Below, piece by piece: positions 3,323 to 63,258 of a stretch of 64,000 nucleotides of DNA (positions are counted from its first letter, which is position 1; the number at the start of each line of letters is the position of its first letter). The notes under the pieces are model-generated. The model worked only from the letters and a program-made list of their open reading frames with translations, was not told where the DNA came from and ran no database searches. The translations under genes were made by a program, and so were the position numbers. The stretch spans positions 129,511-193,510 of the forward strand of contig JBAZSC010000001.1 of assembly GCA_041662665.1 (NCBI GenBank), in the 5' to 3' direction. Source of the DNA: Patescibacteria group bacterium (GTDB lineage: Bacteria; Patescibacteriota; JABMPQ01; JAQVVF01).

Positions 3323-3481
3323 GAATTTTTCATGAAGTTCATAATGTTATAAAGTTATAAAGTTCGTAAAGTCGGCAATGACTTTATAACTTTAAAAACT
3401 TTAAGAACTTTATAAACTTGTTTTATACTTTAAATTATACTATCATAAAGCTAGTTTTATTTCAACAGTAAAAATATAATT

Positions 3482-4492
3482 ATGCAAAACACAGTTGATA
3501 AATCAAATTTCAAAGACGTTGTAAAAAATTATCCAAAACAATTTGCCAAAGCTCTAGATTTTGCCAAGGATGTTAAAATCGAAGGTCAGTTTGAAAATGT
3601 CATTGTTTGTGGTTTGGGAGGATCTGCCTTGCCAGTTGATATGGTGATTTCATATTTAAAATCAAAAAATATTAATTTTCCGATTTCAGTTTGCCGAAAT
3701 TATACCTTGCCAGTAGAGGCCAATGAAAAAAGTTTGATCATTGCTTCATCTTTTTCAGGTTCAACTGAAGAAACAATTTCTTGTCTCAACGAAGCATTAG
3801 CAAAAAATTACAAAGTTGTTGGCATTGCTCGTGGTAAAGATATTTTAGAAATTTGTCAGTCAAAAAATATTCCATATATTCAATATCCAGATGATGGCCC
3901 AACATTCCAGCCTCGTTGTGCATCAGGCTATATTTTTACATCAATTGTAACGATTTTATCTAAAATAAAAGTTTTAGAAAATATTGAAAATGATTTAACA
4001 AATTTAGGTAAATTTTTAGAATCAATAAATATAGAACAAGAAAAAGCTGGTCAAGAATTAGCGCCTAAATTAAAAAATAATATTCCATTAATTTATACAA
4101 CAGAATTTTATCGCGATTCTATAGCTCGCATTTTTAAAATCAAATTAAATGAAAATGCAAAGACGCAAAGTTTTTTCAATTATTTTCCAGAATTGAATCA
4201 TAATGAAATGGTTGGTTTTACAAATTTAGTTGGCAAATATTTTATCATAATTCTGCAAGATCCAAATGATCATGACCGAAACAAAAAAAGAATGAATATT
4301 TTTAAAAATCTTTTAGAACAAAAAGGAATTAGTGTTGAAATTATCTTGATGAAAGGAAATTCTGTTTTAGAAAAAATATTTGCATCTTCACTTTTGGCAG
4401 ATTGGACTTCATATTATTTAGCTTTAGCTTATAATCAAGATCCAACGCCAGTAAATATGGTTGAAGAATTTAAAGAATTGATGAAAAAATAG
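3482..4492 (+). CDS. bifunctional phosphoglucose/phosphomannose isomerase-like SIS-domain protein
   Basis: 336 aa. VIVCGLGGSALP is a SIS-domain glycine-rich loop. Size and layout resemble archaeal-type PGI/PMI. Confidence 0.5.
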   Translation: MQNTVDKSNFKDVVKNYPKQFAKALDFAKDVKIEGQFENVIVCGLGGSALPVDMVISYLKSKNINFPISVCRNYTLPVEANEKSLIIASSFSGSTEETISCLNEALAKNYKVVGIARGKDILEICQSKNIPYIQYPDDGPTFQPRCASGYIFTSIVTILSKIKVLENIENDLTNLGKFLESINIEQEKAGQELAPKLKNNIPLIYTTEFYRDSIARIFKIKLNENAKTQSFFNYFPELNHNEMVGFTNLVGKYFIIILQDPNDHDRNKKRMNIFKNLLEQKGISVEIILMKGNSVLEKIFASSLLADWTSYYLALAYNQDPTPVNMVEEFKELMKK

Positions 4493-4521
4493 TTGACTGT
4501 TTAATCAAATTTTGTTTTAAT
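4493..4521 (+). promoter_or_regulatory. sigma70-like promoter (cassette A): TTGACT - 17 nt - TTTAAT
   Basis: Near-consensus -35, 17-nt spacer and -10, followed by a short leader with a GGAGGAG SD. One of three near-identical copies (approximate coordinates). Confidence 0.55.
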
Positions 4522-4549
4522 TTACGTAGCACCCTAACAGGAGGAGAGA

Positions 4550-4705
4550 ATGGATAGAGACAAAACTGCGATTGATCAAGAAGCTTTGCAATGGCTTCGG
4601 CAAAAAGAAAATAGTCGAAAAGTCATTATTGTAATTGACGATTTCAGCCTAAGAGTTTTACAGAAAGCTGTCAGTCCATTGTCAGTTCTGATCTCCGCAA
4701 ATTAG
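4550..4705 (+). CDS. small hypothetical protein (51 aa), first gene of cassette A
   Basis: ATG 8 nt after a GGAGGAG SD. Not in the ORF track because it is below the length cutoff. Sequence is MDRDKTAIDQEALQWLRQKENSRKVIIVIDDF... Confidence 0.4.
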   Translation: MDRDKTAIDQEALQWLRQKENSRKVIIVIDDFSLRVLQKAVSPLSVLISAN

Positions 4706-4732
4706 TTGTGATAGCAAAGAAGGAGGACAACG

Positions 4733-4921
4733 ATGGCCGATCAAAACAAAGAAAAGCAATTATCCGGATTTGAACAATTTGTTTTTGATCCCAAATCAAC
4801 TTTAAGCGCAACAGATCAAATGCTTGCCTGGCTAAAAAGACATGAAGAAGAAATTGCAGCAGCAGATAGAGAATCTGAAGCAGAATTTAGAAAAGCGCAA
4901 CCAATTTTTGATAAGTTCTGA
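4733..4921 (+). CDS. small hypothetical acidic protein (62 aa), second gene of cassette A
   Basis: ATG preceded by AAGGAGGA. Ends just before a hairpin + T-run terminator. Confidence 0.5.
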   Translation: MADQNKEKQLSGFEQFVFDPKSTLSATDQMLAWLKRHEEEIAAADRESEAEFRKAQPIFDKF

Positions 4922-4936
4922 TTCAGTCGAACTTTT

Positions 4937-4960
4937 TAGAGCTTAATTGCTCTTTTTTAT
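4937..4960 (+). terminator. rho-independent terminator AGAGC-ttaatt-GCTCT + T-run (cassette A)
   Basis: Stem-loop followed by TTTTTT. One of three near-identical copies (5388-5411 and 5870-5895 are the others). Confidence 0.55.
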
Positions 4961-4975
4961 ATTCAAAAATTAATA

Positions 4976-5004
4976 TTGACACATCGTTTAGATTTTGTTT
5001 TAAT
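4976..5004 (+). promoter_or_regulatory. sigma70-like promoter (cassette B): TTGACA - 17 nt - TTTAAT
   Basis: Consensus -35, 17-nt spacer, -10 TTTAAT, then the leader AGTACCTTGAGAGGAGG. Confidence 0.6.
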
Positions 5005-5032
5005 CTATACAGTACCTTGAGAGGAGGAAGCA

Positions 5033-5389
5033 GTGGATCAGACAATCAAGCAAATGCTCGAAAAGAAACTTCAACAAGCGCAAGAATCATCTGATTCAGT
5101 TCAAATTGCAATTGTTGAAAAAACTTTAGCAGCCTTAAGTCAAGAAATTTTATCAATTGTCATTCCAGAAGATTTACCATCTGGTCGTCATGGACTTATG
5201 AGCGAAAATAAACTGAGAACTGTTGTCAAGCTGGTTAGATTAATGCTAAGAAGTCATAATGATTCGGAATGGCAATTTTTCCTTGATTTCGTAAATAAAG
5301 TCAATCAATTGCAAACTGCATTTGATGTTGATTTAGACGAGCAAGAAAAGATTTTGGATCAAATCACTGGTAGAAATTGTACAGTTTAG
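5033..5389 (+). CDS. small hypothetical helical protein (118 aa, GTG start), cassette B
   Basis: GTG start 6-7 nt after a GAGGAGG SD. The stop codon overlaps a terminator hairpin. Confidence 0.5.
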   Translation: MDQTIKQMLEKKLQQAQESSDSVQIAIVEKTLAALSQEILSIVIPEDLPSGRHGLMSENKLRTVVKLVRLMLRSHNDSEWQFFLDFVNKVNQLQTAFDVDLDEQEKILDQITGRNCTV

Positions 5390-5411
5390 AGCAATTTATG
5401 CTCTTTTTTTA
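5388..5411 (+). terminator. rho-independent terminator AGAGCAatttaTGCTCT + T7 (cassette B)
   Basis: Near-identical to the terminators at 4937 and 5870. Confidence 0.6.
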
Positions 5412-5427
5412 TCCTCAAAAATTATTG

Positions 5428-5456
5428 TTGACAGTCAATTCAAAATTTGTTTTAAT
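5428..5456 (+). promoter_or_regulatory. sigma70-like promoter (cassette C): TTGACA - 17 nt - TTTAAT
   Basis: Third copy of the same promoter module, followed by the leader AGTACCTTGGGAGGAGAGGAGGG. Confidence 0.6.
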
Positions 5457-5488
5457 TTAACAGTACCTTGGGAGGAGAGGAGGGAAAG

Positions 5489-5851
5489 GTGACTGTTAGG
5501 GAAATGATCGAAGCTAGAATCAGAGAAGCAGAAAGATTGGAAATTGTACAAGAACAAATTGATTTCTTAAGAACAGTTGAAAACAAGCTTTCAGAAATTG
5601 ATCCAAACATTCTAAGCATTAGTATGCCAGATAGATCGATACCTCCAAGTTGGTTTAGCGAAGTTGAAAGGAATGTCTTGATCGATCTTGTCGAACTATT
5701 CATAAAAGCAAAAACAGTAACTGAGCGAGCAACTTTTCTTGATATGATTAGAAGAGTTCATACCGAAAAAGGAAATAGGAAATTTGATTTTAGCGTTTCT
5801 GATTATCATGCAGTTAGTCGCGCAATTTGCCCTCTACAATCTAGCACTTGA
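5489..5851 (+). CDS. small hypothetical helical protein (about 120 aa, probable GTG start), cassette C
   Basis: The track ORF starts at TTG 5468 inside the SD-like GGAGGAGAGGAGGG run, so GTG 5489 (MTVREMIEAR...) is the more plausible start. Shares a loose pattern with the cassette B protein. Confidence 0.45.
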   Translation: MTVREMIEARIREAERLEIVQEQIDFLRTVENKLSEIDPNILSISMPDRSIPPSWFSEVERNVLIDLVELFIKAKTVTERATFLDMIRRVHTEKGNRKFDFSVSDYHAVSRAICPLQSST

Positions 5852-5869
5852 ATGCACTTTTATCCTAAT

Positions 5870-5895
5870 AGAGCAGTTTATGCTCTTTTTTTATT
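5870..5895 (+). terminator. rho-independent terminator AGAGCAgtttaTGCTCT + T7 (cassette C)
   Basis: Third copy of the terminator module. Confidence 0.6.
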
Positions 5896-5944
5896 TTTAA
5901 AAATTTATTATAATAAAATTAATTTAAAAAATAAGGAGGGAAAA

Positions 5945-8212
5945 ATGTTAAAACAAAGAAACAGTTTTAGAATATTTTGTATTTGCCTTGCCATTTTTTT
6001 GGGAGGCTTTTTTATTTGGCCAAATATTAGTTTTGCGAGTTTTCAAGATGTTATTATTAACGAACTAATGTGGATGGGATCAAGCGAATTTGGCTCAACT
6101 GATGAATGGCTGGAATTAAAAAATTTAACAAATCAAGATATTGATTTTAGTCAGACAAATTTCGCAATCTTCAAAAATGACGCAATAATGTTATCCATTA
6201 ATAATGGCTTTCTTAAGGCAAATGATTATTTTTTAATTTCCAGAAAAGATAAAGATAATTCTATTTTAAATATTAATCCTGATTTAGTTGCATCTTTTAC
6301 ATTAAATAATACTGAAACAAATTATAAATTGTATGATTCTGGAAATAATTTAATTGATGAAATTAAAGCGCCATTAGCTGGTCTTAATAATGAAACAAAA
6401 GTTTCAATGGAAAGAAATCAAGAGCCAGACAATGGTTTGCTTGCAACGGACTGGCATAATGCGCAAACAAAAATTAATTTAGATGAAAATTCAACTGCAC
6501 TAGCAACTCCAAAATCAGAAAATAGCCAGACTCAACAACAGCCAGAAATTTTTCCAGATCAAATATTTATTAATGAAATTCTGCCAAATCCCAAAGATTC
6601 AGATGATGCTGAATTTATTGAGCTTTATAATAATAATTCATTTGAAGTTGATTTATTAAATTGGCAAATTGGCGATAGCACAACTTCTCGTTACATAATC
6701 AAAGCTTCTGATTTCGCAGACACAAAAATTAAATCTAAAAATTATTTTCTTTTGCCAAAATCAATTACTAATTTAACATTAAATAATGATTTAGATTCTG
6801 TAAAAATTTATCAGCCAAATCAAAATTTATTAAATCAAATTGATTATCAAAATTGTTTAGAAGGTCAAAGCTATAACAAACTTAGCGATAATAATTGGCA
6901 ATGGTCAACGACTTTAACGCCAAATTCAGCAAATATAATTACAACGCCAACTGAAATTATTGATGATCAAAATAATAATCCAGTTGAAATAAAAGAGGAA
7001 GAATTAACAATTCCAGCTGGTCCATATTCTAAAAAAATAATTATTACCGAATTTTTGCCAAATCCAAAAGGATCAGATTCAGAATTAAAAGGCGAATTTA
7101 TAGAAATAAAAAATGTTGATTCAAAAAATATAGATCTCTATGGCTGGTACATTGATGATCAAAAAGATGGTTCAACGCCTTATCAAATAAAAAATCATTT
7201 GCAATTAAAACCAAATCAATATTATGTTTTTTATAAAGGCGAAACAAAATTATCTTTAAATAATTCTAATGAATCTGCCAGAATTTTATTGCCAGACAAA
7301 AAAGTTCTGCAAGAAATAAAATTTACAGGCACTGCAAAAGAAGCCGAGTCTTACGCGCTCAAAGATAATAAATGGCAATGGACAACGACTTTAACGCCTG
7401 GCAAAGATAACATTATAAAACAACAAAACAACGAAACAACAAAACAAGACGAAAACACCGAAACACCAGAACAAAAAAACACCGAAACAAACGTCATGAC
7501 AATCAAAGAAGTTCGCGGTTTAAAACGTTATGACACTTTAAAAACAACTGGCATTGTTATTGTTCCTCCAAAAACAATTTCTCAAACTTCATTCTATATT
7601 CAAGACGAAACAGCTGGCATCCAAATTTATTTTTCCAAAAAAGATTTTCCAAATTTAAAATTAGGCGACAAAATTGAAGTTAGCGGAAAATTATCAGAAG
7701 CCTCAAATGAAAAAAGAATTTTAATTGCTAGCAAAGACGATTTTAAAATTTTAGCCAATAATCAAAATTTGAAGCCTGCGCAAATTGAAACTGGCAAAGT
7801 TTCTGAAGATTTGGAAGGAGAATTTGTCATAACTTCTGGCCAATTAGAAAAATCAGTTGGTGGAACATTCTATATCAATGATGGTTCAAAGACTCTCAAA
7901 GTTTATATTCCAACAGATTCGAAAATAGAAAAACCGAAATTAAAAAAAGGCGATTGGGTAACAGTTCAAGGCATTATCAGCGAGACATCAAGCGGTTATC
8001 GTTTAATTCCTCGTTTTACAAGCGACATCAAAGCTGGAAAATTTTCTTTAAATCCAAGTCTTGGTCTAACCCAAATTCCAAAAGCCGGAGCAGATTCCAA
8101 AATATTTCTAATTTTATCTTTTGCAATCATTTTAATTTATTTATCAAAAGTATATGCCAAAAGCATTAGAACGAAAATTAAAGAAACAAGCCAAGAAAAA
8201 AGGTCTAGGTAA
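5945..8212 (+). CDS. surface-anchored protein with lamin-tail-domain (LTD) repeats and a C-terminal OB-fold-like region; possible extracellular DNA-binding protein
   Basis: ATG at 5945 lies 5 nt after AAGGAGGG. Signal peptide LAIFLGGFFIWPNISFA. Three LTD-like segments (INELMWMGSSEFGSTDEWLELKN; INEILPNPKDSDDAEFIELYN; ITEFLPNPKGSDSELKGEFIEIKN). The C-terminal third (YIQDETAGIQIYF...WVTVQGII) looks like an OB fold, followed by a terminal TM anchor. No nuclease catalytic domain was seen. Confidence 0.6.
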   Translation: MLKQRNSFRIFCICLAIFLGGFFIWPNISFASFQDVIINELMWMGSSEFGSTDEWLELKNLTNQDIDFSQTNFAIFKNDAIMLSINNGFLKANDYFLISRKDKDNSILNINPDLVASFTLNNTETNYKLYDSGNNLIDEIKAPLAGLNNETKVSMERNQEPDNGLLATDWHNAQTKINLDENSTALATPKSENSQTQQQPEIFPDQIFINEILPNPKDSDDAEFIELYNNNSFEVDLLNWQIGDSTTSRYIIKASDFADTKIKSKNYFLLPKSITNLTLNNDLDSVKIYQPNQNLLNQIDYQNCLEGQSYNKLSDNNWQWSTTLTPNSANIITTPTEIIDDQNNNPVEIKEEELTIPAGPYSKKIIITEFLPNPKGSDSELKGEFIEIKNVDSKNIDLYGWYIDDQKDGSTPYQIKNHLQLKPNQYYVFYKGETKLSLNNSNESARILLPDKKVLQEIKFTGTAKEAESYALKDNKWQWTTTLTPGKDNIIKQQNNETTKQDENTETPEQKNTETNVMTIKEVRGLKRYDTLKTTGIVIVPPKTISQTSFYIQDETAGIQIYFSKKDFPNLKLGDKIEVSGKLSEASNEKRILIASKDDFKILANNQNLKPAQIETGKVSEDLEGEFVITSGQLEKSVGGTFYINDGSKTLKVYIPTDSKIEKPKLKKGDWVTVQGIISETSSGYRLIPRFTSDIKAGKFSLNPSLGLTQIPKAGADSKIFLILSFAIILIYLSKVYAKSIRTKIKETSQEKRSR

Positions 8213-8285
8213 AAAAAGAACAGCTGCTTACGTTTACGGAACTTTGCGCAAAACTGGTTGGTCACCAAAAAGAAAGAAGAAATAA
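8154..8285 (+). CDS. possible very basic 43-aa peptide overlapping the 3' end of the LTD gene in another frame
   Basis: MPKALERKLKKQAKKKGLGKKRTAAYVYGTLRKTGWSPKRKKK. No SD. Could be a chance ORF in an A-rich sequence. Confidence 0.2.
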   Translation: MPKALERKLKKQAKKKGLGKKRTAAYVYGTLRKTGWSPKRKKK

Positions 8286-8356
8286 TTGACAAAATTTGAT
8301 TCAAAGATTATATTTATTAATCAGCACTTTTTACAACCCAAGGAGGGAAAAGAAAA

Positions 8357-8704
8357 ATGAAAAACACAATCAACATTGTGCTTGGATATTTTGCAATGTT
8401 TCTTGTTGTTGTCATTTATATTCTTTGCTTCATTATTTTTTATCGGCTGATTAACGTAAATCTTTTTTCAGAAATATTGTTGTTTATCCCAATGCTTATT
8501 GTCTTCTCAATCCTTTTCATCATTTTTGTAATTATCATCGGAGTTCCTGTTATTCTATTCTATTACTACTTTGTCAAGAAATGTGATCTATGCAACAAAA
8601 GAGGTTTCGTTTTTGCCTTTGAAACATCAGATTCAGAAGTTCCATTCTCTGATCCTTATCTTTGTTATAGATGTCGAAGTTTGCGAAAACAATTGAGAGC
8701 CTAG
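8357..8704 (+). CDS. small polytopic membrane protein with a C-terminal CxxC...CxxC zinc ribbon
   Basis: SD AAGGAGGG upstream. Two hydrophobic helices, then CDLCNKRGFV...CYRCRSL. Confidence 0.5.
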   Translation: MKNTINIVLGYFAMFLVVVIYILCFIIFYRLINVNLFSEILLFIPMLIVFSILFIIFVIIIGVPVILFYYYFVKKCDLCNKRGFVFAFETSDSEVPFSDPYLCYRCRSLRKQLRA

Positions 8705-8717
8705 AGAGGAGGAGAAA

Positions 8718-21860: not shown

Positions 21861-22973
21861 ATGTATCTTTCTTCTCTTCAACTTAAAAATTTTCGCAATT
21901 ACAAAGATTTTGAATCAAGTTTCACCAATGGCTTGATTATTTTGACTGGCCAGAATGCTTCCGGAAAAACTAATTTATTAGAAGCAGTTGAATTATTGTC
22001 ATTATCAAAATCTTTTCGTGCCAGGTCAGAATACGATTTAATTTTATTTGGTATGGATTTCGCCAAAATTTTAGGAACATCACAGAAAAATAATCACCAA
22101 ACAAAATTAGATATTACTATTGATTCATTAACTTCCAAAAATCAAAAAGTAATTAAAATTGATGGTTTAAAAAGTCGCGCTTTTGATTTGATCGGCGAAT
22201 TAGTTACTGTACTTTTTTCTCCAGAAGATTTGAATTTAGTTAATTCAGCGCCACAACTTCGCCGACGTTATTTAGATGTTGTCATTTGCCAGATTAATAA
22301 AGACTATTGCCGAAATTTGTCCGAATACAAAAAAGTTTTAATTAATCGAAATCAGCTTTTAGCTAATATCAAAGATGGTTATGCAAAAAAAGAGGAATTA
22401 AGTTTTTGGAATGAAAAATTAATTGATTTAGGAACAAGGATTATTATCGAACGCCAAAAAACTTTACAATTTTTTAATACTAAATTGTCAGAAATTTACA
22501 ATGATATCTGCGATACTAAAGATCAAAAACTTCGTATAATTTATCTACCAAATTTGCCTTTGTTAAAAGATTCAGACATCAAAAAATTATTTGAACAAGA
22601 ATTAAATAATAAATACGAAAGAGAAATTTATAAAACTTACACTTTAGTTGGTCCGCATCGAGATAATTTTGTTTTTGAACTTAATAAAAAGAGATTAGCC
22701 ATCTTTGGTTCGCGAGGTGAATATCGCAGCGCAATATTAGCTTTAAAATCTGCAGAATTAGATTTTATTGAACAAAGCTTGGGAGAACGACCGATTCTTT
22801 TGCTTGATGATGTTTTTTCTGAATTAGATGAAAAAAGACGCAATCACATGTTTGATTTAGTCAGACGCCAGCAAACTTTTATCACTTCTGCTGATTTTGT
22901 CGGACTTGAAGTTGGTTTTGTTAGAGATGCGCAAGTACTTCAAATCAAAAATGGAGAAATAACGAATAAATAA
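21861..22973 (+). CDS. recF: DNA replication and repair protein RecF
   Basis: LQLKNFRNYKDFESSF...GQNASGKTNLLEAVELL (Walker A). SMC-like ABC ATPase, 370 aa. Confidence 0.85.
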   Translation: MYLSSLQLKNFRNYKDFESSFTNGLIILTGQNASGKTNLLEAVELLSLSKSFRARSEYDLILFGMDFAKILGTSQKNNHQTKLDITIDSLTSKNQKVIKIDGLKSRAFDLIGELVTVLFSPEDLNLVNSAPQLRRRYLDVVICQINKDYCRNLSEYKKVLINRNQLLANIKDGYAKKEELSFWNEKLIDLGTRIIIERQKTLQFFNTKLSEIYNDICDTKDQKLRIIYLPNLPLLKDSDIKKLFEQELNNKYEREIYKTYTLVGPHRDNFVFELNKKRLAIFGSRGEYRSAILALKSAELDFIEQSLGERPILLLDDVFSELDEKRRNHMFDLVRRQQTFITSADFVGLEVGFVRDAQVLQIKNGEITNK

Positions 22974-22974
22974 C

Positions 22975-23075
22975 AAAATCCAAATTCCAAACAAATCACA
23001 AATAACAAACGACAAATCGTCGATTTTGTAATTTGGATTTTGTAATTTGTTTGGAATTTGGTATTTGTAATTTAT
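22975..23075. repeat. intergenic composite palindrome, 'caaatcccaaat' family (copy 1)
   Basis: ccaaattccaaacaaatcacaaataacaaacgacaaatcgtcgattttgtaatttggattttgtaatttgtttggaatttgg is a long imperfect inverted repeat. The same sequence family recurs at 26252-26360, 37489-37612, 48279-48330/48700-48762 and 50612-50715. Confidence 0.7.
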
Positions 23076-23081
23076 TTCGAG

Positions 23082-23381
23082 ATGTCTATTTTTTCTCTCA
23101 AAGATTTACTGCCAGTTGCAATTAACAATGCTGGCATTAAAACACAGCTTGAAGCTTCTCAAGTTTGTTTGACTTGTGAAAAATTAATTAAAGAATTAAA
23201 TCACAAAGCTTTTAAGCTCGCAAAACCAATTAGTCTAAAAAATAAAACGCTAACCATTCAAGTTCCATCTTCATCTCATGCTCAAGAATTATTAATGCAC
23301 CAACATATCATCAAGCAAAAAATCAACCAGCATTTTAGAAAACAGCTGGTTGATCGGATAAGTTATAAAATAGAATTTTAG
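23082..23381 (+). CDS. DUF721/DciA-like protein (recF-adjacent small protein)
   Basis: The internal Met (MSIFSLKDLLP) is the likelier start. The position after recF and the pattern TLTIQVPSSSHAQELLMHQHIIKQKIN are typical of DUF721. Confidence 0.5.
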   Translation: MSIFSLKDLLPVAINNAGIKTQLEASQVCLTCEKLIKELNHKAFKLAKPISLKNKTLTIQVPSSSHAQELLMHQHIIKQKINQHFRKQLVDRISYKIEF

Positions 23382-24293: not shown

Positions 24294-26252
24294 ATGAACA
24301 TATCAACTTTAGCAAAAAAATTAGGTTACCATAGCCAAGAAATGCGCAAGATGATTGAGGCAATGGGATATCGACTTCGACCAACAGCGTCGAAGATTTC
24401 TGATAAAAAAGCAAAAGAAATTACCAAAAAAGTAGAAAAGCTAGAAAAGGAAAAAACTCTAGAAATGAAAGAAGAACAGAAAAAAGTTGAAAAAGCCAAA
24501 GAACCAAAAAAACTTTATGTCGCCCAAACTATTACAGTTAAGGATTTCGCACAAGTTTTAGAAATGGAAGTTACTGATGTCATTAGACAATTGATCCAGG
24601 AAGGCATCATGGCAACAATCAATGAAGAAATTGATTTTGAAACAGCGAGTATTATTGCTGAAGAATTAGGCCATAAAATTGAATTAAAAAAAGAAGAAAA
24701 AGATTTGATTAAGGAAAAAGGAGTTCGCAAACAGATTCTCGAAGATTTATCTCATGAAGAAGAAAAGAATTTAAAGCCTCGTCCTCCAGTTGTTGTTGTC
24801 ATGGGTCACGTTGATCATGGCAAGACAAAATTATTGGATGTCATTCGCGAAACAAATATTATTGCTACTGAAGCAGGAGGTATTACTCAAAAAATCGGTG
24901 CTTATCAAGCAAAATGCAATGGCAAAGTCATTACGTTTTTAGATACTCCTGGTCACGAAGCTTTCAAAGCAATGCGCGAAAGAGGTGCAAAAGTTACTGA
25001 TATGGCAATTCTTGTTGTTGCAGCTGATGACGGTGTTATGCCTCAAACAGAAGAAGCAATTGCGCATGCCAAAAATGCTGGCGTGCCAATTATTGTTGCT
25101 ATCAACAAAATAGATAAAGAAGGTGCTGATCCAGAAAAAGTAAAAAGACAGCTCGCTGATTTAGGTTTGCAACCAGAAGATTGGGGAGGCGATACAATTA
25201 TGGTTGAAATATCTGCCAAAATGAATAAAAATATCGATAAGCTTTTAGAAATGGTTTTATTGCAAGCGGAAATTTTAGAATTAAAAGCCAACCAAGAATC
25301 AAAAGCCATAGGCACAATCATTGAAGCAAACAAAGATCCCAAAAAAGGTCCAGTTGCTACAGTTTTGATTCAAAATGGAACTTTGAATTTGGGCGATTAT
25401 GTTACTTGTGGCAGTATCTATGGAAAAATCAAGGCAATGGAAAATTTCTTAGGCAAAAGAATAAATCATGCTAAGCCATCAACTCCAGTTCAAATTTTAG
25501 GTCTTACAGCAGTTCCAGATTCTGGCGATATTTTGCAAGAAGAAAAATCCAAAGAAGCAGCTCGAGAAAAAATTGCCAAAATCGCAAAAGCAGAAATCAA
25601 GATTAAACGCAATTTGACTCCAGAAGAAGAAAGAAAAATTAAAAAATTAAATATAATTTTAATTGCTGATTTTTATGGATCTCTTGAAGCAATTATTGAT
25701 GAGCTAAACAAAATCAATTCCAAGCAAGTTATGCCTCAAATCATTGATTATTCTGCTGGCAAGATTACTGAATCAAATGTCATGAATGCTCAATCTTCAA
25801 ATGCAATTATTTTTGGTTTTAATTCTAAGCCAACAACTGTTGCATCTCGTCTTGCCGAAGATAAGCATGTCAAAATATTTTCCTACGATATTATTTACGA
25901 ATTAATTGACGAAATCAAAAAACAATTGAGTTCTTTGATCGAGCCAGAAGTCATTAAGACAAAATTAGGCAAACTTAATGTTTTAGCAATTTTCAGATCT
26001 GAAAAGAAAAGAAAAATTATTGGCGGCAGAGTCTTGTCTGGCTTCCTAGCAAAAGATTCAATTGTAAAAATAATCAGAGAAGATGTAGAAATTGGCCAAG
26101 GAAAAATTACTACTGTTCAAAAAAATATGGCTGATGTACAAAAGGTAGAAGCAGGTTCAGAATGTGGAATGTCAATTGATACGACTGTCAAAGTTAAAGA
26201 AGGTGACGTGATTGAAGCTTGGAAAGAAGAAATCAAAAAAATCACTTTATAA
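24294..26252 (+). CDS. infB: translation initiation factor IF-2
   Basis: G-domain VVVVMGHVDHGKTKLLD, DTPGHEAF and NKIDK motifs. 652 aa with a short N-terminal region. Confidence 0.9.
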   Translation: MNISTLAKKLGYHSQEMRKMIEAMGYRLRPTASKISDKKAKEITKKVEKLEKEKTLEMKEEQKKVEKAKEPKKLYVAQTITVKDFAQVLEMEVTDVIRQLIQEGIMATINEEIDFETASIIAEELGHKIELKKEEKDLIKEKGVRKQILEDLSHEEEKNLKPRPPVVVVMGHVDHGKTKLLDVIRETNIIATEAGGITQKIGAYQAKCNGKVITFLDTPGHEAFKAMRERGAKVTDMAILVVAADDGVMPQTEEAIAHAKNAGVPIIVAINKIDKEGADPEKVKRQLADLGLQPEDWGGDTIMVEISAKMNKNIDKLLEMVLLQAEILELKANQESKAIGTIIEANKDPKKGPVATVLIQNGTLNLGDYVTCGSIYGKIKAMENFLGKRINHAKPSTPVQILGLTAVPDSGDILQEEKSKEAAREKIAKIAKAEIKIKRNLTPEEERKIKKLNIILIADFYGSLEAIIDELNKINSKQVMPQIIDYSAGKITESNVMNAQSSNAIIFGFNSKPTTVASRLAEDKHVKIFSYDIIYELIDEIKKQLSSLIEPEVIKTKLGKLNVLAIFRSEKKRKIIGGRVLSGFLAKDSIVKIIREDVEIGQGKITTVQKNMADVQKVEAGSECGMSIDTTVKVKEGDVIEAWKEEIKKITL

Positions 26253-26360
26253 ATCCCAAATCCCAAAAAACAAACAAATAACAAATTACAAATCACAATC
26301 CGTCGACTTTGTAATTTGTTATTTGGGATTTGTTTGGAGTTTAGAATTTGTAATTTTACG
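26252..26360. repeat. intergenic composite palindrome, 'caaatcccaaat' family (copy 2)
   Basis: aaatcccaaatcccaaaaaacaaacaaataacaaattacaaatcacaatccgtcgactttgtaatttgttatttgggatttgtttgg, lying between infB and rbfA. Confidence 0.7.
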
Positions 26361-26363
26361 ATT

Positions 26364-26693
26364 ATGTCACATCGTTTAGAAAAACTTAACAGCCTAATTC
26401 AGCAAGAATTAGGTTTCATTATCAAAGAGGAAGTAGAGATTCCGATTGATTCTTTGATTACTGTTTCAAAAGTAGATACTTCTGTTGACATTAAACACAC
26501 AAACGTGTATATTTCTGTGATCCCAAAAAACAAAGCTGTTAGCGTTATCAAAAAGCTTAATCACAATGTTTATCATTTGCAAAAAGCTTTAAATAAAAAA
26601 TTGGTAATGCACTTTGTTCCAAAGATCCGATTTGTCTTAGACCATTCTGAAGAGCATGCTGAGAAAATCGAAAAGATTTTAGCAAAAATATAA
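26364..26693 (+). CDS. rbfA: ribosome-binding factor A
   Basis: MSHRLEKLNSLIQQELGFII... immediately downstream of infB, which is the conserved arrangement. About 110 aa. Confidence 0.7.
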   Translation: MSHRLEKLNSLIQQELGFIIKEEVEIPIDSLITVSKVDTSVDIKHTNVYISVIPKNKAVSVIKKLNHNVYHLQKALNKKLVMHFVPKIRFVLDHSEEHAEKIEKILAKI

Positions 26694-29043: not shown

Positions 29044-29157
29044 AATTTTCAATTACCAATTTCCAATTTTCAAATAATATTCAATGGACAATTTTCATTG
29101 GAAATTGATCATTGGTAATTGATTGTAAATTGATAATTGGAAATTGAAAATTATTTT

Positions 29158-30357
29158 ATGTCTAACAACTTTTATCTCAAAATTTTGGCCATAATCTCTG
29201 CAATTTGTTTGTGGTTTTTTGTCATTAACGAAGGCTTTAGAGTTGATAATTTAGATACTGAATTGACAATTAAAGCACAGAATCTTTCTGAAGATTTGAT
29301 AATTACTAATAATTTGCCAAACGTTAAAGTAAAATTGCGCGCTCCAAATGACGTCTGGCAAAAAAAAGATATTGCCACCAAAATAGATGCCTCAATTAAT
29401 TTGCAATATTATAGCCAAGGTGAATATGATATTGAAGTAAAAGTAGAAGCTTTAGACAAGAATATTCAAATCATAGAACAAGAGCCAAAATCAGTTCACG
29501 TAATTTTATCGCCAATTATTTCAATTGAAAAACAAGTTGAATTAGAAACATCTGGAAATTTGGGCAAAGATTATCAAGCATCCAAACCAAAATTTTCACA
29601 AAGCGAAGTTAATGTTGAAAGCGCTCAAGTCATTTTAGATAAAATTGTTAAAGTTGTTGCGCCAATAAAATATAATGGCGAAATGTCAGAAATTAAAAAG
29701 ACTGTAGAATTAGAAGCCAGAGATAAAGATAATAAAAAAATTGATAAAGTAAATATTCTGCCAAAAACAGTTGAAGTTATTATTCCTGTTAATAAAGAAA
29801 ATGGCGAAAAAACAGTTGGTGTTAAAGCAAATATTATTGGCAATTTGCCTGCTGGCGCTACGATTGAAAAAATAGAAACCAATCCGTCAACTGTTACGAT
29901 CAAAGGCAAGAATGAAAAGATTAAGGATATTGACACAGTCGAAACGGAAATCATAGATTTAAGTGAAATGACAGAAGATGTTAATGAAAAAAAAGTTAAT
30001 TTAAATTTGCCAGATGGAATTGAAATCTTAGGCAATCCGCAAATTACAGTCAAAATTTATTTAAACCAGCAAACAATTTCCAAACAATTTTCAGGCATTA
30101 TAAAATACAAAAATCTTAACGATCAATTTAAAGTTGGTGGTATTATGCCAAGTCGCATCCAATTGACAATTGAAGGCCCATCTGCTAAAATCAATAGCTT
30201 AAATGAGGATGATGTTTTTATAGAAATTGATTTAGCAAATAAAACAGAAGGAACTCCAGAATTTAGTATTTCGCCTGAAAGCATTTCAGTCCCATCAGGC
30301 ATCACTGTTAAGAGCGTTGAAACAAGATCAATCAAAGTTATTATTGTCAAGAAATAA
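29158..30357 (+). CDS. cdaR: YbbR-like domain protein CdaR (regulator of CdaA)
   Basis: Immediately downstream of cdaA. N-terminal TM (LKILAIISAICLWFFV) and repeated YbbR-like beta-rich segments. The track start 29137 lies in an intergenic palindrome, so Met 29158 is preferred. Confidence 0.65.
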   Translation: MSNNFYLKILAIISAICLWFFVINEGFRVDNLDTELTIKAQNLSEDLIITNNLPNVKVKLRAPNDVWQKKDIATKIDASINLQYYSQGEYDIEVKVEALDKNIQIIEQEPKSVHVILSPIISIEKQVELETSGNLGKDYQASKPKFSQSEVNVESAQVILDKIVKVVAPIKYNGEMSEIKKTVELEARDKDNKKIDKVNILPKTVEVIIPVNKENGEKTVGVKANIIGNLPAGATIEKIETNPSTVTIKGKNEKIKDIDTVETEIIDLSEMTEDVNEKKVNLNLPDGIEILGNPQITVKIYLNQQTISKQFSGIIKYKNLNDQFKVGGIMPSRIQLTIEGPSAKINSLNEDDVFIEIDLANKTEGTPEFSISPESISVPSGITVKSVETRSIKVIIVKK

Positions 30358-30398
30358 CTTTATAAACTTTATAACTTTAAGAACTTTATAACTCGTTT

Positions 30399-34873: not shown

Positions 34874-35662
34874 ATGATAATTTTATTCTTCGGTGATATC
34901 GTTGGCAGAGCTGGTCGTTCTGCAATTAAAAAAATATTACCAGAACTAAAAACTAAATATAATCCAGATTTAATAATTGCTAATGGCGAAAATCTTGCCC
35001 ATGGTCTTGGTATTACAAAAAAAACAGTTCAAGAAGTTTTAGATTCAGGTGTTGATGTTTTAACATCTGGAAATCATATTTATGACAAGACAGAAGGCAT
35101 TGAAATGTTACAGCAAGATAGTAATTTGCCAATTATCAGACCAGCAAACTACCCATTAGATAATCCAGGCAAAAGATATATCATTAAACAAGTTCGGACT
35201 AAAAAAGTTTTGATCACAAATGTTTTAGGCCGAGTTTTTATCAAAGAAGATTTAGATTGTCCATTTAAGACAATTGATAAAATTTTAGAAGAAAATAAAA
35301 ATGAAAAAATAGATTTCAGTATCGTTGATTTTCACAAAGAAGCAACTTCAGAAGTCAAAGCTTTAGGTTTTTATTTAGATGGCAAAGTCTCGGTAGTACT
35401 AGGCACTCATACTCATGTTCAAACTTCTGATGAACAAATTTTAGAAAAAGGAACTGCTTATATTTCTGATGTTGGCATGGTTGGACTAAAGGATTCTGTT
35501 TTAGGCGTTCAAAAAGAAAAAGTTATTGATCAATTCTTGACTCAAATGCCTCATCGATGGGAAGTTGATGAAAGCGGAAAATGCATAATCAATGCTGTTG
35601 TCCTTAATTTTGAAAACGACAAAAAAACAATCACAAGAATTAATGAAGAAGTAGAGATCTAA
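34874..35662 (+). CDS. ymdB: YmdB-like metallophosphoesterase (TIGR00282 family; 2',3'-cyclic-nucleotide phosphodiesterase)
   Basis: MIILFFGDIVGRAGRSAIKKILPELKTKYNPDLIIANGENLAHGLGIT...GNH...GTHTHVQTSDEQILEKGTAYISDVGMVG closely parallels B. subtilis YmdB. Located in the rny neighbourhood. Confidence 0.85.
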   Translation: MIILFFGDIVGRAGRSAIKKILPELKTKYNPDLIIANGENLAHGLGITKKTVQEVLDSGVDVLTSGNHIYDKTEGIEMLQQDSNLPIIRPANYPLDNPGKRYIIKQVRTKKVLITNVLGRVFIKEDLDCPFKTIDKILEENKNEKIDFSIVDFHKEATSEVKALGFYLDGKVSVVLGTHTHVQTSDEQILEKGTAYISDVGMVGLKDSVLGVQKEKVIDQFLTQMPHRWEVDESGKCIINAVVLNFENDKKTITRINEEVEI

Positions 35663-35829
35663 TTTCTAATTTCTATTAAATTTTCAATGAATAATTTCTA
35701 AACGCAGAGCTAATTGCTCTGTTTTAAATTGTTCTTTGCGCTAAAATAAGTTAAAATAACACTAAGGTTTTAAAATTTATAATTAGAAATTTAATAAAAA
35801 TTGAAAATTGAAAATTGTAATACAAATTT

Positions 35830-37424: not shown

Positions 37425-37488
37425 GATTTTATTTTTATATATTTAAAAAGGCGAGAATCAATTCTCGTCTTTTTTAAAAAACCAAAAA

Positions 37489-37612
37489 AAATCCCAAATA
37501 CCAAATCCCAAACAAATTACAATAACCAAATTACAAAATTTTAAGAATAAGTTTTGTGATTTGTAATTTGTTAATTGTTTGGAATTTGGGATTTGTAATT
37601 TCGACGTTTAAT
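37489..37612. repeat. intergenic composite palindrome, 'caaatcccaaat' family (copy 3)
   Basis: atcccaaataccaaatcccaaacaaattacaataaccaaattacaaaatttt...gttttgtgatttgtaatttgttaattgtttggaatttgggatttgtaattt. Confidence 0.7.
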
Positions 37613-45413: not shown

Positions 45414-46835
45414 ATGCAAAGATTAAGTTTAACACAATTAGTCGATCAAAATATTTTTGACAAGATTTTCAAACAAGCACAAGACTGTGAGCGTTTTAGT
45501 TTTCAAGGAGAATATGGTCCAATAGCTTATCAGATTATTTTGACAATTGATAATGCGTTGCAAAAATTCCCTCAATTGAAATCAGAAAATCCAGAAATTT
45601 ACAAAAAATATAATGATCTAAATATTCATCTAAAATTCCATTGCCAAGAATATCTGCCAGATGATAATGATGTTTTAGATCTCTATGAAAAACATTTAGC
45701 TGATGCTTTGAAAAGAAATATGAATTTAGAAAGATGGCTTCGAAACAAGCTTATCTCAATGCGGATGACTTATCGCGATGAATACGTGAACAAAATAAAG
45801 GCAATAATCAAAAAAAACCAGCAAAAAATTGGTGAAAAAGAAATCATAATTTCTAATAAAAAATATCAGCCAACAATTGAAAATTGGATCAAAGATTATG
45901 AATATGAAGCTAATCCCGGCATCCATTCTTTAGTTGAAAGAAATAATTATTTTTTCCAATCCAAAAATCCTAGAAATTTGAATGAGCAAGAAAAGAAAGA
46001 ATTAAAAAAACTTTTGCAGCTTTTTGATCGAATGCAATTAAAAATAACTGACGCTGGAAGTTTAACTGGTTATTCAGCATCAATGTATGGCATTGAACTC
46101 AAAAAAACAGTTGATTTAGGCGCTTTTACAACCAAAGAGCAAGAGCATATTGATAAGGGAATCAAACAGCCTGCATCAAGTGTCAAGCCAATCCCATTCC
46201 CAACTAAAAAAACAGAACAGCGAGAAAAATTATTAGCAGAAAACAAAAAACTTGCCGAAAGAGAAATGCTTGGTGTAGTAGATATTAAAAAACTTCAGGC
46301 AGCTGAACCAAGCAATAGATTTATTGCATCTATAAAGAGAATCGGCAAACCAATAAAAAAAACAGAACCAAAAATTGAAGAAACAAAAGTAATAAAAGCA
46401 GTTCCAGAAAAAGAAGTTGTCAAAGAAATTGCAAAGCCAAAAACAGAAGAATTACCAAATCCTCCAAAAAAAGTTTTTCACAAAGAACACAAAATTTTAA
46501 CCCCAGCAAAGCCAGTCATTGTTTCCAAACAAATCAACAGAATTCAAAATCTTACTATTTTAGAATTCAGAGATCTAGGTACTGATGCAAAACAATCCGC
46601 GCAGAAATTATTAAATAATCTTCGCGATATTGCCAAGACTCATGAAGAGAGAAAAATTGCTCAAGAAAATTTCATGAAAAGTCCGCTTTACAAATTATAT
46701 GAGGCAATGACAAATCAAAGCGAAACAGAAAAAAAATCAATCAGCCAAGTTTCAAAAGATAGGCAAGATCAGAAAATGGAATATTTGTCGGAAGATGAAT
46801 ACATCGCGGTGAAAAGTATAAGCAAGCTTATCTAA
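45414..46835 (+). CDS. hypothetical Lys/Glu-rich soluble protein (473 aa)
   Basis: ORF inside the T4SS-like locus. No recognised motif. Confidence 0.45.
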   Translation: MQRLSLTQLVDQNIFDKIFKQAQDCERFSFQGEYGPIAYQIILTIDNALQKFPQLKSENPEIYKKYNDLNIHLKFHCQEYLPDDNDVLDLYEKHLADALKRNMNLERWLRNKLISMRMTYRDEYVNKIKAIIKKNQQKIGEKEIIISNKKYQPTIENWIKDYEYEANPGIHSLVERNNYFFQSKNPRNLNEQEKKELKKLLQLFDRMQLKITDAGSLTGYSASMYGIELKKTVDLGAFTTKEQEHIDKGIKQPASSVKPIPFPTKKTEQREKLLAENKKLAEREMLGVVDIKKLQAAEPSNRFIASIKRIGKPIKKTEPKIEETKVIKAVPEKEVVKEIAKPKTEELPNPPKKVFHKEHKILTPAKPVIVSKQINRIQNLTILEFRDLGTDAKQSAQKLLNNLRDIAKTHEERKIAQENFMKSPLYKLYEAMTNQSETEKKSISQVSKDRQDQKMEYLSEDEYIAVKSISKLI

Positions 46836-46949
46836 TTTCCAATTAACAATTTCCAATTTTCAATAAATTACCAATTTTCAATTTACAATGAATTCTCGCA
46901 GTTTTGAAAATTGGTTATTGGAAATTTATTGTAAATTGGTCATTGAAAA

Positions 46950-47393
46950 TTGAAAACTAATTTTATGCAGTATCCCATTCCTCAATTTGTCGAAATAGAA
47001 GACCAGATTATCGGCCCTCTGACTTTAAAACAATTTTTTTATTTATTAGGTGGCGGAATATTTTTACTGATTGCTTGGTCATTTGTTGATCTGACATTAT
47101 TCATTTTTCTAGCAATAATTGTTGCTGGAATAACAATGCCATTAGCTTTTGTCAAACCTTATGGCAGACCATTGACTGATTATCTTTCTGCAGTTTTCAA
47201 ATACATTTTAGGTCCAAAAATATTAGTCTGGCATAAAAGTGGAAGAGCTCCGAGAGTAAAAGCCTATGATCTTAATAAGAAAAAATCTGGTCCAGAAAAA
47301 ATCACCATTGGCGAAAAAAAATATACACCAAGCTCTATTCATCGTCTTGCAAGACAACTTGATTTTAAGACGGTCATGAGCGAAAAAAAATAA
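46950..47393 (+). CDS. small two-TM membrane protein, VirB3/PrgI-like candidate
   Basis: 147 aa. Two adjacent hydrophobic helices (LLGGGIFLLIAWSFVDLTLFIFLAIIVAGITMPLAF). Lies immediately upstream of the VirB4-like gene, as VirB3/PrgI does. Confidence 0.4.
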   Translation: MKTNFMQYPIPQFVEIEDQIIGPLTLKQFFYLLGGGIFLLIAWSFVDLTLFIFLAIIVAGITMPLAFVKPYGRPLTDYLSAVFKYILGPKILVWHKSGRAPRVKAYDLNKKKSGPEKITIGEKKYTPSSIHRLARQLDFKTVMSEKK

Positions 47394-47533
47394 TCATAAA
47401 TGATCAATTTCCAATTCTCAATTTTCAATAAGTTGCCAATGAACAATTTTCAATGGCTACTTCGTAAGTTTTGAAAATTGGTTAATTGATAATTTATTGG
47501 AAATTGTAAATTGATAATTGAAAATTAAAACTG

Positions 47534-48277
47534 ATGTCCAAAAAACAAGACAAGAAAAAAAATAGTGCTGAAACAAAGCAACAAGAAGAAACAATGCTTT
47601 CAAGCAAAGCAGTCAAGAAAGAAGAAGAGACTACTCAGAAGTTTTTAAAATTGTCTGGAATTAGAGATGGAATAGTAATTTTAAATAATAAAGCTCTACG
47701 AGCAATTGTAATGTGTTCATCAATTAATTTTGCTTTAATGTCTGAAGATGAACAAAAAGCAAAAGTTTTTGGCTATCAAGATTTTTTAAATTCATTAAAT
47801 TTTCCAGTTGAGATTGTCATTCAGACCAGAAAATTAAATATTGGAAGTTACTTAGAAAAAGTCAAAGAAGCAGAAAGAATGCAGGAAAACGAATTATTGA
47901 GAATCCAGACAGCAGAATATGCTGAATTTATCAAATCTTTAGTTGAACTAGCAAATATCACAACTTCTCATTATTATGTTGTTGTCCCATATTCTCCTCC
48001 TGGCATTGAAGCAACAGAAGGAATTTTAGATAAACTAAAAGGCATAATTTCACCAGCTTCAAAAATAAAAGAAGAGCAAGTTGGTTTTCAAAAGCAACAA
48101 GAAGAGCTTTTGCTTCGTGTTAATTCAGTTATCAGTGGTTTAGGCGGAGTTGGAATTCAATCAGCACAGCTAAATACTCAGGAAGTAGTTGAGCTATTAT
48201 ATTCATGGTATAATCCAGATGAGAGCACCACTGAGATTTTAGGAGAATTAGAGAAGCTCAAGATAGAGCAGGCATAA
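47534..48277 (+). CDS. VirB4/TrsE-like ATPase, N-terminal domain encoded as a separate ORF
   Basis: FLKLSGIRDGIVILNNKALRAIVMCSSINFALMSEDEQKAKVFGYQDFLNSLNFPVEIVIQTRKL matches the N-terminal region of Gram-positive VirB4 homologs (pattern I..DG.I......F.K.Y.L.DINF.....EEQ...F..F..FLNS....V.FQI). In homologs this region is contiguous with the segment that opens the next ORF. Confidence 0.55.
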   Translation: MSKKQDKKKNSAETKQQEETMLSSKAVKKEEETTQKFLKLSGIRDGIVILNNKALRAIVMCSSINFALMSEDEQKAKVFGYQDFLNSLNFPVEIVIQTRKLNIGSYLEKVKEAERMQENELLRIQTAEYAEFIKSLVELANITTSHYYVVVPYSPPGIEATEGILDKLKGIISPASKIKEEQVGFQKQQEELLLRVNSVISGLGGVGIQSAQLNTQEVVELLYSWYNPDESTTEILGELEKLKIEQA

Positions 48278-48278
48278 A

Positions 48279-48762
48279 AAAAATCCCAAATCCCAAATTC
48301 CAAACAAATTACAAATCACAAAAAACAAAATTGCCCGAACAAAATAAAACTAACAAATTATATAATCTCGAAGACCGAACTTTAGAATTTAGTAAAAGAG
48401 TTGCCAATATGTGCAACGCTTTGCCTAAAAATTATATTAATATTGTTTATATAAATCAGATTTTAAGATCAGGGAGTTCGATAGGTGCTAATTACATAGA
48501 AGCAAATGAATCATTAGGAAAAAAAGATTTTAAAATGAAAGTAAGAATTGCTAGAAAAGAAGCAAAAGAAACAACTTATTGGCTGAATTTAATAATAGAT
48601 GCTAATCCAGAATTTAGAAAAAGAATTGAACCATTATTACAAGAATCAATCGAAATAAGAAATATTTTATCAACAATAATAAACAAATCTAATTAATTTT
48701 TTTTGTAATTTGTATTTTGTATATTGTAATTTGTTTGGAATTTGGGATTTGTAATTTATAAT
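48279..48762 (+). mobile_element. IVS-like element: four-helix-bundle gene carried inside a 'caaatcccaaat'-family inverted repeat, inserted at the junction of the split VirB4 gene
   Basis: Left arm aaaatcccaaatcccaaattccaaacaaattacaaatcacaa (about 48279-48330). Right arm ttgtaatttgtattttgtatattgtaatttgtttggaatttgggatttgtaattt (about 48700-48762). Both flank CDS 48331..48696. Confidence 0.45.
48331..48696 (+). CDS. four-helix-bundle protein (23S rRNA IVS-type family), second copy
   Basis: LEFSKRVANMCNALPKNYINIVYINQILRSGSSIGANYIEANESLGKKDFKMKVRIARKEAKETTYWLNLI. Shares the family pattern with the 27846 gene. Non-ATG (TTG) start per the track. Confidence 0.55.
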   Translation: MPEQNKTNKLYNLEDRTLEFSKRVANMCNALPKNYINIVYINQILRSGSSIGANYIEANESLGKKDFKMKVRIARKEAKETTYWLNLIIDANPEFRKRIEPLLQESIEIRNILSTIINKSN

Positions 48763-50313: not shown

Positions 50314-50603
50314 CATCAGATTATGGTAAAGCAATTGTTACTAATTCCGCTTTGCAATTATTATTAAAACAATCTCCAGCCTCAATTGATTTATTGAAAA
50401 AAACTTTTTATCTAACAGAAGAAGAAAAATATTTACTTTTAGAATCAGATGTTGGTGAAGGTATTTTCTTTGCAGGTAGCAAACATGTTGCAATTAAAAT
50501 AGTCGCTTCATATTCAGAAGACCAAATCATTACCACAGATCCAAAACAATTATTAGAATTAGAACAAGCCAAGAAGAATTATGAACAAGAACAAAATGTT
50601 TAA
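50199..50603 (+). CDS. VirB4/TrsE-like ATPase, C-terminal portion in the -1 frame
   Basis: From ...DVNDFLTSDYGKAIVTNSALQLLLKQ onward this frame continues the VirB4 C-terminus. It overlaps the previous ORF by 115 nt. This means a frameshift, an authentic pseudogene, or a sequencing indel near 50300-50315. Confidence 0.55.
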   Translation: MVDDAIRRICQIYVQYCQKRPKILSWHNHNFSDVNDFLTSDYGKAIVTNSALQLLLKQSPASIDLLKKTFYLTEEEKYLLLESDVGEGIFFAGSKHVAIKIVASYSEDQIITTDPKQLLELEQAKKNYEQEQNV

Positions 50604-50611
50604 AAACAAAA

Positions 50612-50715
50612 GCCACAAATCCCAAATTCCAAACAAATTTCAAATTACAAATCACAAAATTGCAAGTTTGTTTATTGTGATTTGTGATTTGTTTGGATTT
50701 TGGAATTTGTAATTT
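50612..50715. repeat. intergenic composite palindrome, 'caaatcccaaat' family (copy 6)
   Basis: ccacaaatcccaaattccaaacaaatttcaaattacaaatcacaaaattgcaagtttgtttattgtgatttgtgatttgtttggattttggaatttgtaattt. Confidence 0.7.
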
Positions 50716-50741
50716 ATTTCTATATTTAATAAAATAAAAAT

Positions 50742-63196: not shown

Positions 63197-63258
63197 CTTA
63201 TCTTATTATCTCTAGAAAATAAAAAAAGAGCAATATCATGCTCTAAAAGATCAATAAA

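Follow-up and report, generated by a model that had tools for sequence, protein, structure and literature searches.

The window, a stretch of 64,000 nucleotides (nt) from a Patescibacteria group bacterium (assembly GCA_041662665.1, contig JBAZSC010000001.1, positions 129,511 to 193,510, forward strand), contains a tandem array of three predicted transcription units, each with a promoter, one or two small open reading frames (ORFs) and a terminator, placed between the genes of a PGI-like sugar isomerase and of a surface protein with lamin-tail domains (LTD). The units are arranged head to tail, with periods of 483, 452 and 482 bp. Features of the array and of its two anchors are listed in window coordinates (aa, amino acids).

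3482..4492, plus strand: PGI-like SIS-domain sugar isomerase, upstream anchor (Pfam bact-PGI_C, E=1.6e-43).
4493..4549, plus strand: promoter P0 and leader (nhmmer promoter profile, E=8e-14); -35 box TTGACT, 4493-4498; extended -10 TG, 4513-4514; -10 box TTTAAT, 4516-4521; GGAGG, 4540-4544.
4550..4705, plus strand: 51-aa ORF, annotated WC663_00750 (ORF listing).
4733..4921, plus strand: 62-aa ORF, B family, with an FxFDPKS motif and its own GGAGG at 4722-4726.
4938..4975, plus strand: terminator T1 and junction spacer ATATTCAAAAATTAATA; hairpin, 4938-4953; T-run, 4954-4959 (nhmmer terminator profile, E=1.9e-5).
4976..5032, plus strand: promoter P1 and leader CAGTACCTTGAGAGGAGG; -35 box TTGACA, 4976-4981; -10 box TTTAAT, 4999-5004.
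5033..5389, plus strand: C2, 118-aa gene with GTG start, annotated WC663_00760.
5388..5427, plus strand: terminator T2 and junction spacer ATCCTCAAAAATTATTG; hairpin, 5388-5404; T-run, 5405-5411.
5428..5488, plus strand: promoter P2 and leader ACAGTACCTTGGGAGGAGAGGAGGGAAAG; -35 box TTGACA, 5428-5433; -10 box TTTAAT, 5451-5456.
5489..5851, plus strand: C3, 120-aa gene with GTG start, annotated WC663_00765.
5870..5944, plus strand: terminator T3 (hairpin, 5870-5886; T-run, 5887-5893), followed by the promoter region of the LTD gene (TATAAT, 5909-5914; Shine-Dalgarno sequence; ATG, 5945).
5945..8212, plus strand: LTD surface protein, downstream anchor (Pfam LTD, E=1.6e-36), with a signal peptide, three lamin-tail domains and OB folds.

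The ORFs WC663_00750 to 00765 carry the annotation 'hypothetical protein' on a contig of 645 kb, and B is bicistronic with the 51-aa ORF. Their lengths (51, 62, 118 and about 120 aa) and the two GTG starts are as described in the first-pass annotation of this DNA; the GTG starts of C2 and C3 are supported because aligned orthologues have ATG at the same position. An identical array on an independent Logan contig (L001) supports the assembly, and the shorter contigs L016 (JGI) and L020 (ENA) agree with the window sequence to either side of the array. Contig L016 (JGI Ga0172379_10117524; region noted, 1-200) is identical to the window over PGI, promoter P0, the 51-aa ORF and the greater part of the 62-aa ORF; at window position ~4872 it passes abruptly into DNA that is unrelated and apparently richer in GC, most likely because the assembly is chimeric.

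Exact matches to the promoter pattern TTGAC-N13-TTTGTTTTAAT number three in the window, where shuffled sequence would give 0.02. In each promoter, with -35 boxes at 4493, 4976 and 5428, TTGAC(T/A) is followed by a 17-nt spacer ending in TGT and by TTTAAT; the TTGACA-17 nt-TTTAAT promoters proposed earlier are upheld, the first copy reading TTGACT. Three terminators of the form AGAGC-loop-GCTCT with 6-7 T were found by a consensus scan (folding energies of -6.7 to -7.6 kcal/mol); their 5-6 bp stems, 5-6 nt loops and adjoining T-runs have the geometry of intrinsic terminators. Earlier described as three near-identical modules, these elements do comprise three promoters and three terminators, but the copies of promoter and leader are only 69-72% identical and those of the terminator 80-82%, the first leader (AGCACCCTAACAGGAGG) stands clearly apart from the others, and the composite of terminator and promoter is present twice (4938-5004 and 5388-5456). 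What had been read as a degenerate fourth terminator-like copy is the complete third terminator, 89% identical to T2, followed by the LTD promoter region.

Judged by sequence, each unit would be transcribed from an extended -10 promoter close to consensus, translated from a strong GGAGG ribosome-binding site and ended by an intrinsic terminator, and we infer that the modules are active in transcription and termination. The proposal of insulated, strongly expressed units agrees with these predicted parts, but fails for the first unit: P0 has no upstream terminator and the TAG stop of PGI (4490-4492) directly abuts its -35 box, so that unit 1 would not be insulated on its 5' side. A terminator hairpin after PGI is present in relatives and absent in the window. 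The three window leaders share no fold, each predicted structure being different, and no Rfam family matches the region. Nor is the region noticeably GC-richer, as had been stated: its GC content is 0.346, against a window mean of 0.316 (standard deviation 0.024), and 12% of equal-sized windows match it.

Within the window, the nhmmer promoter profile finds this locus only; the terminator profile adds a single weak hit at 63215-63251. This hit covers a minus-strand hairpin at 63227-63244 (AGAGCATGATATTGCTCT and T7ATTTT; nhmmer E=5e-4) between a 225-aa ORF and recG, which shares stem and tail with the array terminators. A scan of 185,579 species genomes with the promoter-leader pattern gave exactly one further locus (L003), at the same site between PGI and LTD. 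Ten loci were obtained when metagenomes were scanned with the promoter pattern, of which nine are chance promoter-like matches and one (L016) is the same strain; no match was obtained in viral contigs.

C2 and C3 are paralogues. They are 29% identical over 94 aa by BLASTP; independently built profiles of the two subgroups align at 95.7% in hhalign (E=1e-8, 108 columns); and the AlphaFold2 models (predicted local distance difference test scores of 87 for C2 and 78 for C3) both have five helices with matching boundaries. The cargo genes, held by the first-pass annotation to differ from unit to unit, do so where the 51-aa ORF and B are concerned, which are unrelated to C, but not where the 118-aa and 120-aa proteins are concerned; the suggested diversified small-protein family describes the C2/C3 part of the cargo. 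C2 is 46-49% identical to protein P0005 of L005, and C3 has orthologues in L002 (69% identity) and in L004 and L006 (about 40%). A full HMMER profile scan of 1.84 billion representative proteins gave four C-family clusters, and an index of 5.8 billion proteins gave six C-family proteins, all at the PGI-LTD locus of related Patescibacteria metagenome-assembled genomes (MAGs). Word-indexed searches with single proteins returned only the query and one relative, fewer than the full-HMMER profile recovered; the variants among cluster members are alternative start calls of the same strain only.

The other small proteins have fewer relatives. The N-terminal half of B is 39% identical to a 56-aa ORF of L005 that lies directly upstream of the C2 gene, and A, a 72-aa protein of L003, likewise has one relative in L005, these being the only ones among the loci compared. 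For the 51-aa ORF, in which the GC content at third codon positions is atypical (0.33), no homologue was detected, and its coding status is uncertain. No homology to the C family was detected for A, B or the 51-aa ORF. A C-terminal resemblance between A (72 aa) and B (62 aa), centred on a 'PIF' motif, was rejected as not significant (E=0.3). The small proteins are mostly acidic and helical and have no signal peptide, and are therefore presumably cytoplasmic.

Ratios of nonsynonymous to synonymous substitution (dN/dS), for the window against L002 at a dS of 0.5-0.8, are 0.02 for the NTP-transferase encoded next to PGI, 0.11 for PGI, 0.18 for LTD and 0.26 for C3; the C3-like genes of L004 and L006 give 0.14. 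Values of 0.14-0.26 argue for C3 as a real but fast-evolving gene. We find it hardly credible that the ORFs are not genes and that the repeat represents non-coding RNAs or the duplication of an intergenic or regulatory stretch: the lack of a homologue and the third-position composition of the 51-aa ORF would fit, but C2 and C3 have orthologues with intact frames and these low dN/dS values, B has an orthologue in L005, the structural models are confident, and Rfam has no match.

An anti-defence, toxin/immunity or secreted-effector role had been suggested for the cargo, and no search lends it support. The array proteins have no significant match in PADLOC, PHROGs or NCBIfam and only sub-threshold matches in Pfam (Imm70, E=0.074); a profile search of the PDB gave nothing below E=0.18; no fold match was found in the PDB or in viral predicted-structure libraries; and phage and plasmid records, searched with tblastn, were likewise negative. 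A literature search gave nothing relevant. There is no toxin gene in the window's locus. No recombinase lies within about 6 kb: a Pfam scan of the genes between 205 and 14347 detected none, the window beyond them not having been scanned protein by protein; these neighbours carry sugar-metabolism, LTD, TMEM43 and GH18 domains, and four of the ORFs have no Pfam hit. We accordingly give very little credence to an integron-like or defence/anti-defence cassette array with anti-defence, toxin/immunity or effector cargo. Short variable ORFs with a repeated hairpin element and rapidly diverging proteins give the locus a superficially similar layout, but no integrase is found among the scanned neighbours, the units have individual promoters, the hairpin with its 5-6 bp stem and U-tract is not a 57-141-nt attC site, dN/dS is below 0.3, and the protein and structure collections named above hold no match. 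The cassette array of integron-like or foreign origin that had been suggested is likewise opposed by the lack of a recombinase and of an attC-like site, and by a promoter module that occurs once among the 185,579 species genomes.

The same locus was found in a series of relatives, which share the order NTP-transferase (minus strand), PGI, small genes, LTD, a 131-aa gene and a TMEM43-like gene. Synteny of PGI is seen in L002, L003 (a Saccharibacteria-labelled MAG), L004 and L006, and LTD is syntenic in all relatives. The cargo of each locus is as follows.

Window: promoter-[51-aa ORF and B]-terminator, promoter-C2-terminator, promoter-C3-terminator.
L002: promoter-C3-terminator, with an opposite-strand PIN-like pair just after the terminator.
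L003: promoter-A-terminator.
L004 and L006-L009: promoter-C3-like-terminator.
L005: A-B-C2-terminator, one operon with no internal modules; the contig starts inside A, and the promoter is unseen.

Every complete locus in a relative has one promoter and one terminator, with differing cargo, so that the variation in cassette number looked for after the first-pass annotation does exist, unit number and cargo both varying between relatives. In L005, B and C2 overlap, with no module between them. No locus departs from the order A-B-C2-C3, of which each shows a subset, and the cargo pool amounts to three small families and one ORFan; duplication and loss therefore fit better than foreign capture. 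The pair in L002 (2588-3251, minus strand) resembles a toxin-antitoxin module. It consists of a 54-aa ORF and, overlapping with it, the ORF of a 181-aa PIN-like protein (Pfam PIN, E=0.007, under the family cut-off), and is inserted at the same breakpoint as the internal junctions of the window.

The scaffold of promoter, leader and terminator is conserved far more than its cargo. Window P2 and the L002 promoter with leader are 89% identical, without a single difference in the 32-nt leader, and the terminators of the two loci are 82% identical; L003 and L004 are 84% identical in the promoter and 92% in the stretch from terminator to LTD start. Other orthologous intergenic DNA is 44-61% identical at a dS of 0.5-0.8. 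Conservation of the scaffold reaches the start codon on one side and about 15 nt before the hairpin on the other, whatever the cargo. Identity so far above the intergenic background argues for strong purifying selection on the scaffold, and the conserved regulatory scaffold of the first-pass annotation is borne out, with conservation far above neutral expectation. Because P2 and its L002 counterpart (89%) are more alike than the paralogous promoters within the window (69-72%; 72% for P1 and P2), the duplication would predate the species split. Gene conversion was considered as the main cause of the similarity between modules and was rejected, orthologous copies being more alike than paralogous ones.

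The same comparison could be read as exchange, with the conserved scaffold or the PGI and LTD flanks acting as portable homology by which cassettes are swapped between strains through homologous recombination after DNA uptake; the window array would then hold accumulated alleles from different lineages. The identities between L003 and L004, whose cargo is A in one and C3 in the other, would agree with this, as would a scaffold conserved up to its cargo regardless of what that cargo is, the insertion of the L002 PIN-like pair exactly at the breakpoint of the window's internal junctions, and the fact that P0, P1 and P2 differ among themselves more than P2 differs from its L002 orthologue. We regard exchange as possible but unlikely: the cargo comes from the same few families in the constant order A-B-C2-C3, and contiguous deletions explain every state; no family members were found elsewhere, nor in phage, plasmid or viral collections; no recombinase lies nearby; and the sequence of the internal junctions is as tandem duplication predicts.

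Both internal junctions consist of the T-run and TAT(A/C)(T/C)TCAAAAATTA(A/T)T(A/G), followed directly by TTGACA, whereas single-unit relatives and window T3 have the T-run and TATTTATCAAAATTTAATATAAT, belonging to the LTD promoter region, at the matching position. The internal junction is the usual post-terminator spacer fused to a -35 box, and this fusion is the signature of head-to-tail tandem duplication. As the breakpoint is the same in both junctions, one founding junction was probably copied again. We conclude, with a probability of roughly 0.6, that the array arose at a clade-specific, variable locus where an autonomous transcription unit underwent duplication and loss.

The ancestral state would have been a clade-specific locus of small genes with one strong promoter and one terminator, probably in the order A-B-C2-C3, of which relatives would retain contiguous subsets. 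In the array, each unit would combine a sigma-70-type promoter, a predicted leader of about 25 nt with GGAGG and one or two small ORFs, closed by a short intrinsic terminator. The segment duplicated head to tail would have started shortly ahead of the -35 box and ended about 16 nt beyond the terminator, after which C2 and C3 would have diverged as paralogues and genes would have been lost within units; the modules, as direct repeats, would allow whole units to be gained or lost by unequal recombination. The order of these events, and recombination as the cause of unit loss, are what we infer from the loci compared.

Several points weigh against duplication and loss. The cargo of units 2 and 3 is paralogous (95.7% in hhalign), but that of unit 1 (the 51-aa ORF and B) is unrelated and not homologous to C, so that a plain triplication needs several deletions. 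The junction of B and C2 in L005 has no module, which would mean a later addition in the window lineage or a loss in L005, both orders of events being compatible with the six loci. The scaffolds of L003 and L004, 84-92% identical around the unrelated cargo A and C3, can also be read as replacement. The terminator hairpins, at 5-6 bp, are short.

The overlap of B and C2 in L005 without an intervening module could also suggest that the composite of terminator and promoter, about 90 bp long, is an element like a miniature inverted-repeat transposable element (MITE) or a repetitive extragenic palindromic (REP) sequence that, by inserting between its genes, split a pre-existing A-B-C2-C3 operon into separate transcripts. 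A hairpin with the AGAGCA/TGCTCT stem and a T-run does occur outside the array, on the minus strand at 63227-63244, and other dispersed palindromic intergenic repeats are present in the genome. Such an origin is nevertheless distinctly improbable, since the promoter part was not seen outside this locus, either in the window or in the roughly 110 kb of related loci scanned, and has one match among GTDB species genomes; the composite has neither terminal inverted repeats nor target-site duplications; and its halves are the sequences that bound the single-unit locus in relatives.

The locus offers a clean natural case in which promoter, leader and terminator are conserved far more than the genes they would express, the contrast being seen across species with synonymous sites about half saturated. 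The modules are candidate strong promoter and terminator parts for Patescibacteria, for which, to our knowledge, few regulatory elements have been characterised. C2 and C3 form a tiny clade-restricted family of varying copy number, with confident five-helix models and no known relatives, encoded beside a surface protein. For the biology of the candidate phyla radiation this is a modest lead and not a new mechanism, and the genome evolution involved is of an ordinary kind. It is more speculative, and in our view improbable, that promoter-leader and terminator form a dedicated strong 'expression slot', a recombinase-independent system of self-promoted cassettes in episymbiotic Patescibacteria whose fast-evolving helical proteins, of a fold unmatched in the PDB, would act in host or phage interaction beside the LTD protein; if so, small genes would be exchanged, duplicated and deleted by recombination at the module boundaries.

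Further features of the window were noted outside the array. Internal direct repeats within the LTD gene (6561-7398, spacing 474-477 nt) probably correspond to its repeated lamin-tail domains. Between LTD and the conserved 131-aa gene lie 505 nt (8213-8717), against a spacer of 60 nt in L002. This stretch contains a near-consensus promoter, TTGACA-17-TATATT (8286-8314), with CAGCAC near the expected transcription start, and a 115-aa ORF (8357-8704), uncalled in L001, which by eye seems to have about three hydrophobic, transmembrane-like segments and a CxxC...CxxC tail. The promoter profile of the array has weak matches (E=0.01-0.1) upstream of the conserved 131-aa gene in L004 (8729-8761) and L007 (8749-8782). 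These sites suggest that a CAGYAC start context is common in the clade. In the divergent promoter region of NTP-transferase and PGI, an array of AACTTTATAA / AACTTTAAGAACTTTATAA motifs at 3377-3415 recurs at 30353-30391, about 27 kb away, with 87% identity, and may be a shared operator.

Two families of dispersed intergenic repeats are also present in the window. The first is a long palindromic repeat with arms of about 45 nt (AAATCCCAAATTCCAAACAAATTACAAAT... and inverse), and every copy immediately precedes the start of a plus-strand gene; for the one at 50600-50730 the folding energy is -39.7 kcal/mol (z = -6.5). The second is AT-rich (AATTTTCAATTACCAATTTCCAATTTTCAA...), and its copies at 35660 and 55000 are 93% identical. 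Copies are located as follows.

Palindromic repeat: 22963-23083; 26246-26366; 37484-37611; 48276-48334 and 48657-48767; 50605-50725.
AT-rich repeat: 29044-29153; 46834-46959; 47399-47527; 54987-55116; 35660-35702.

Among known systems, the promoters resemble the sigma-70/SigA extended -10 (TGn or -16 region) promoters of low-GC Gram-positive type (TTGACA, 17 nt, TGt, with A/T-rich DNA upstream of the -35 box), and the terminators resemble intrinsic terminators of the same type (a GC-containing hairpin with 6-7 T); they differ in a -10 box of TTTAAT instead of TATAAT and in unusually short hairpins (5-6 bp), and their activity here is predicted. With integron cassette arrays the locus shares short variable ORFs, a recurring hairpin element and a fixed chromosomal site. 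In integrons, attC sites are imperfect palindromes of 57-141 nt with an R''-L''/L'-R' core, and cassettes, normally promoterless, are expressed from a common Pc promoter; here there is no integrase and no attC architecture, each unit has its own TTGACA-17-TTTAAT promoter, and the cargo comes from a tiny locus-specific pool. Hotspot loci such as defence or accessory islands, replaced through homologous recombination in their flanks, are similar in their conserved flanks, here PGI and LTD, and in content that differs between close relatives, including the inserted PIN-like pair of toxin-antitoxin type in L002; the content here, however, consists of subsets of one clade-specific gene set and not of diverse foreign genes, and conservation extends from the flanks to the promoter and terminator of the locus itself. 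Tandem segmental-duplication arrays share with the locus the head-to-tail units, junctions in which the 3' flank is fused to the 5' flank, paralogous genes (C2 and C3) and a unit number that varies between relatives. Unlike them, the array described here combines regulatory parts of 70-89% nucleotide identity with coding parts of 24-29% amino acid identity, and one of its units carries unrelated genes.

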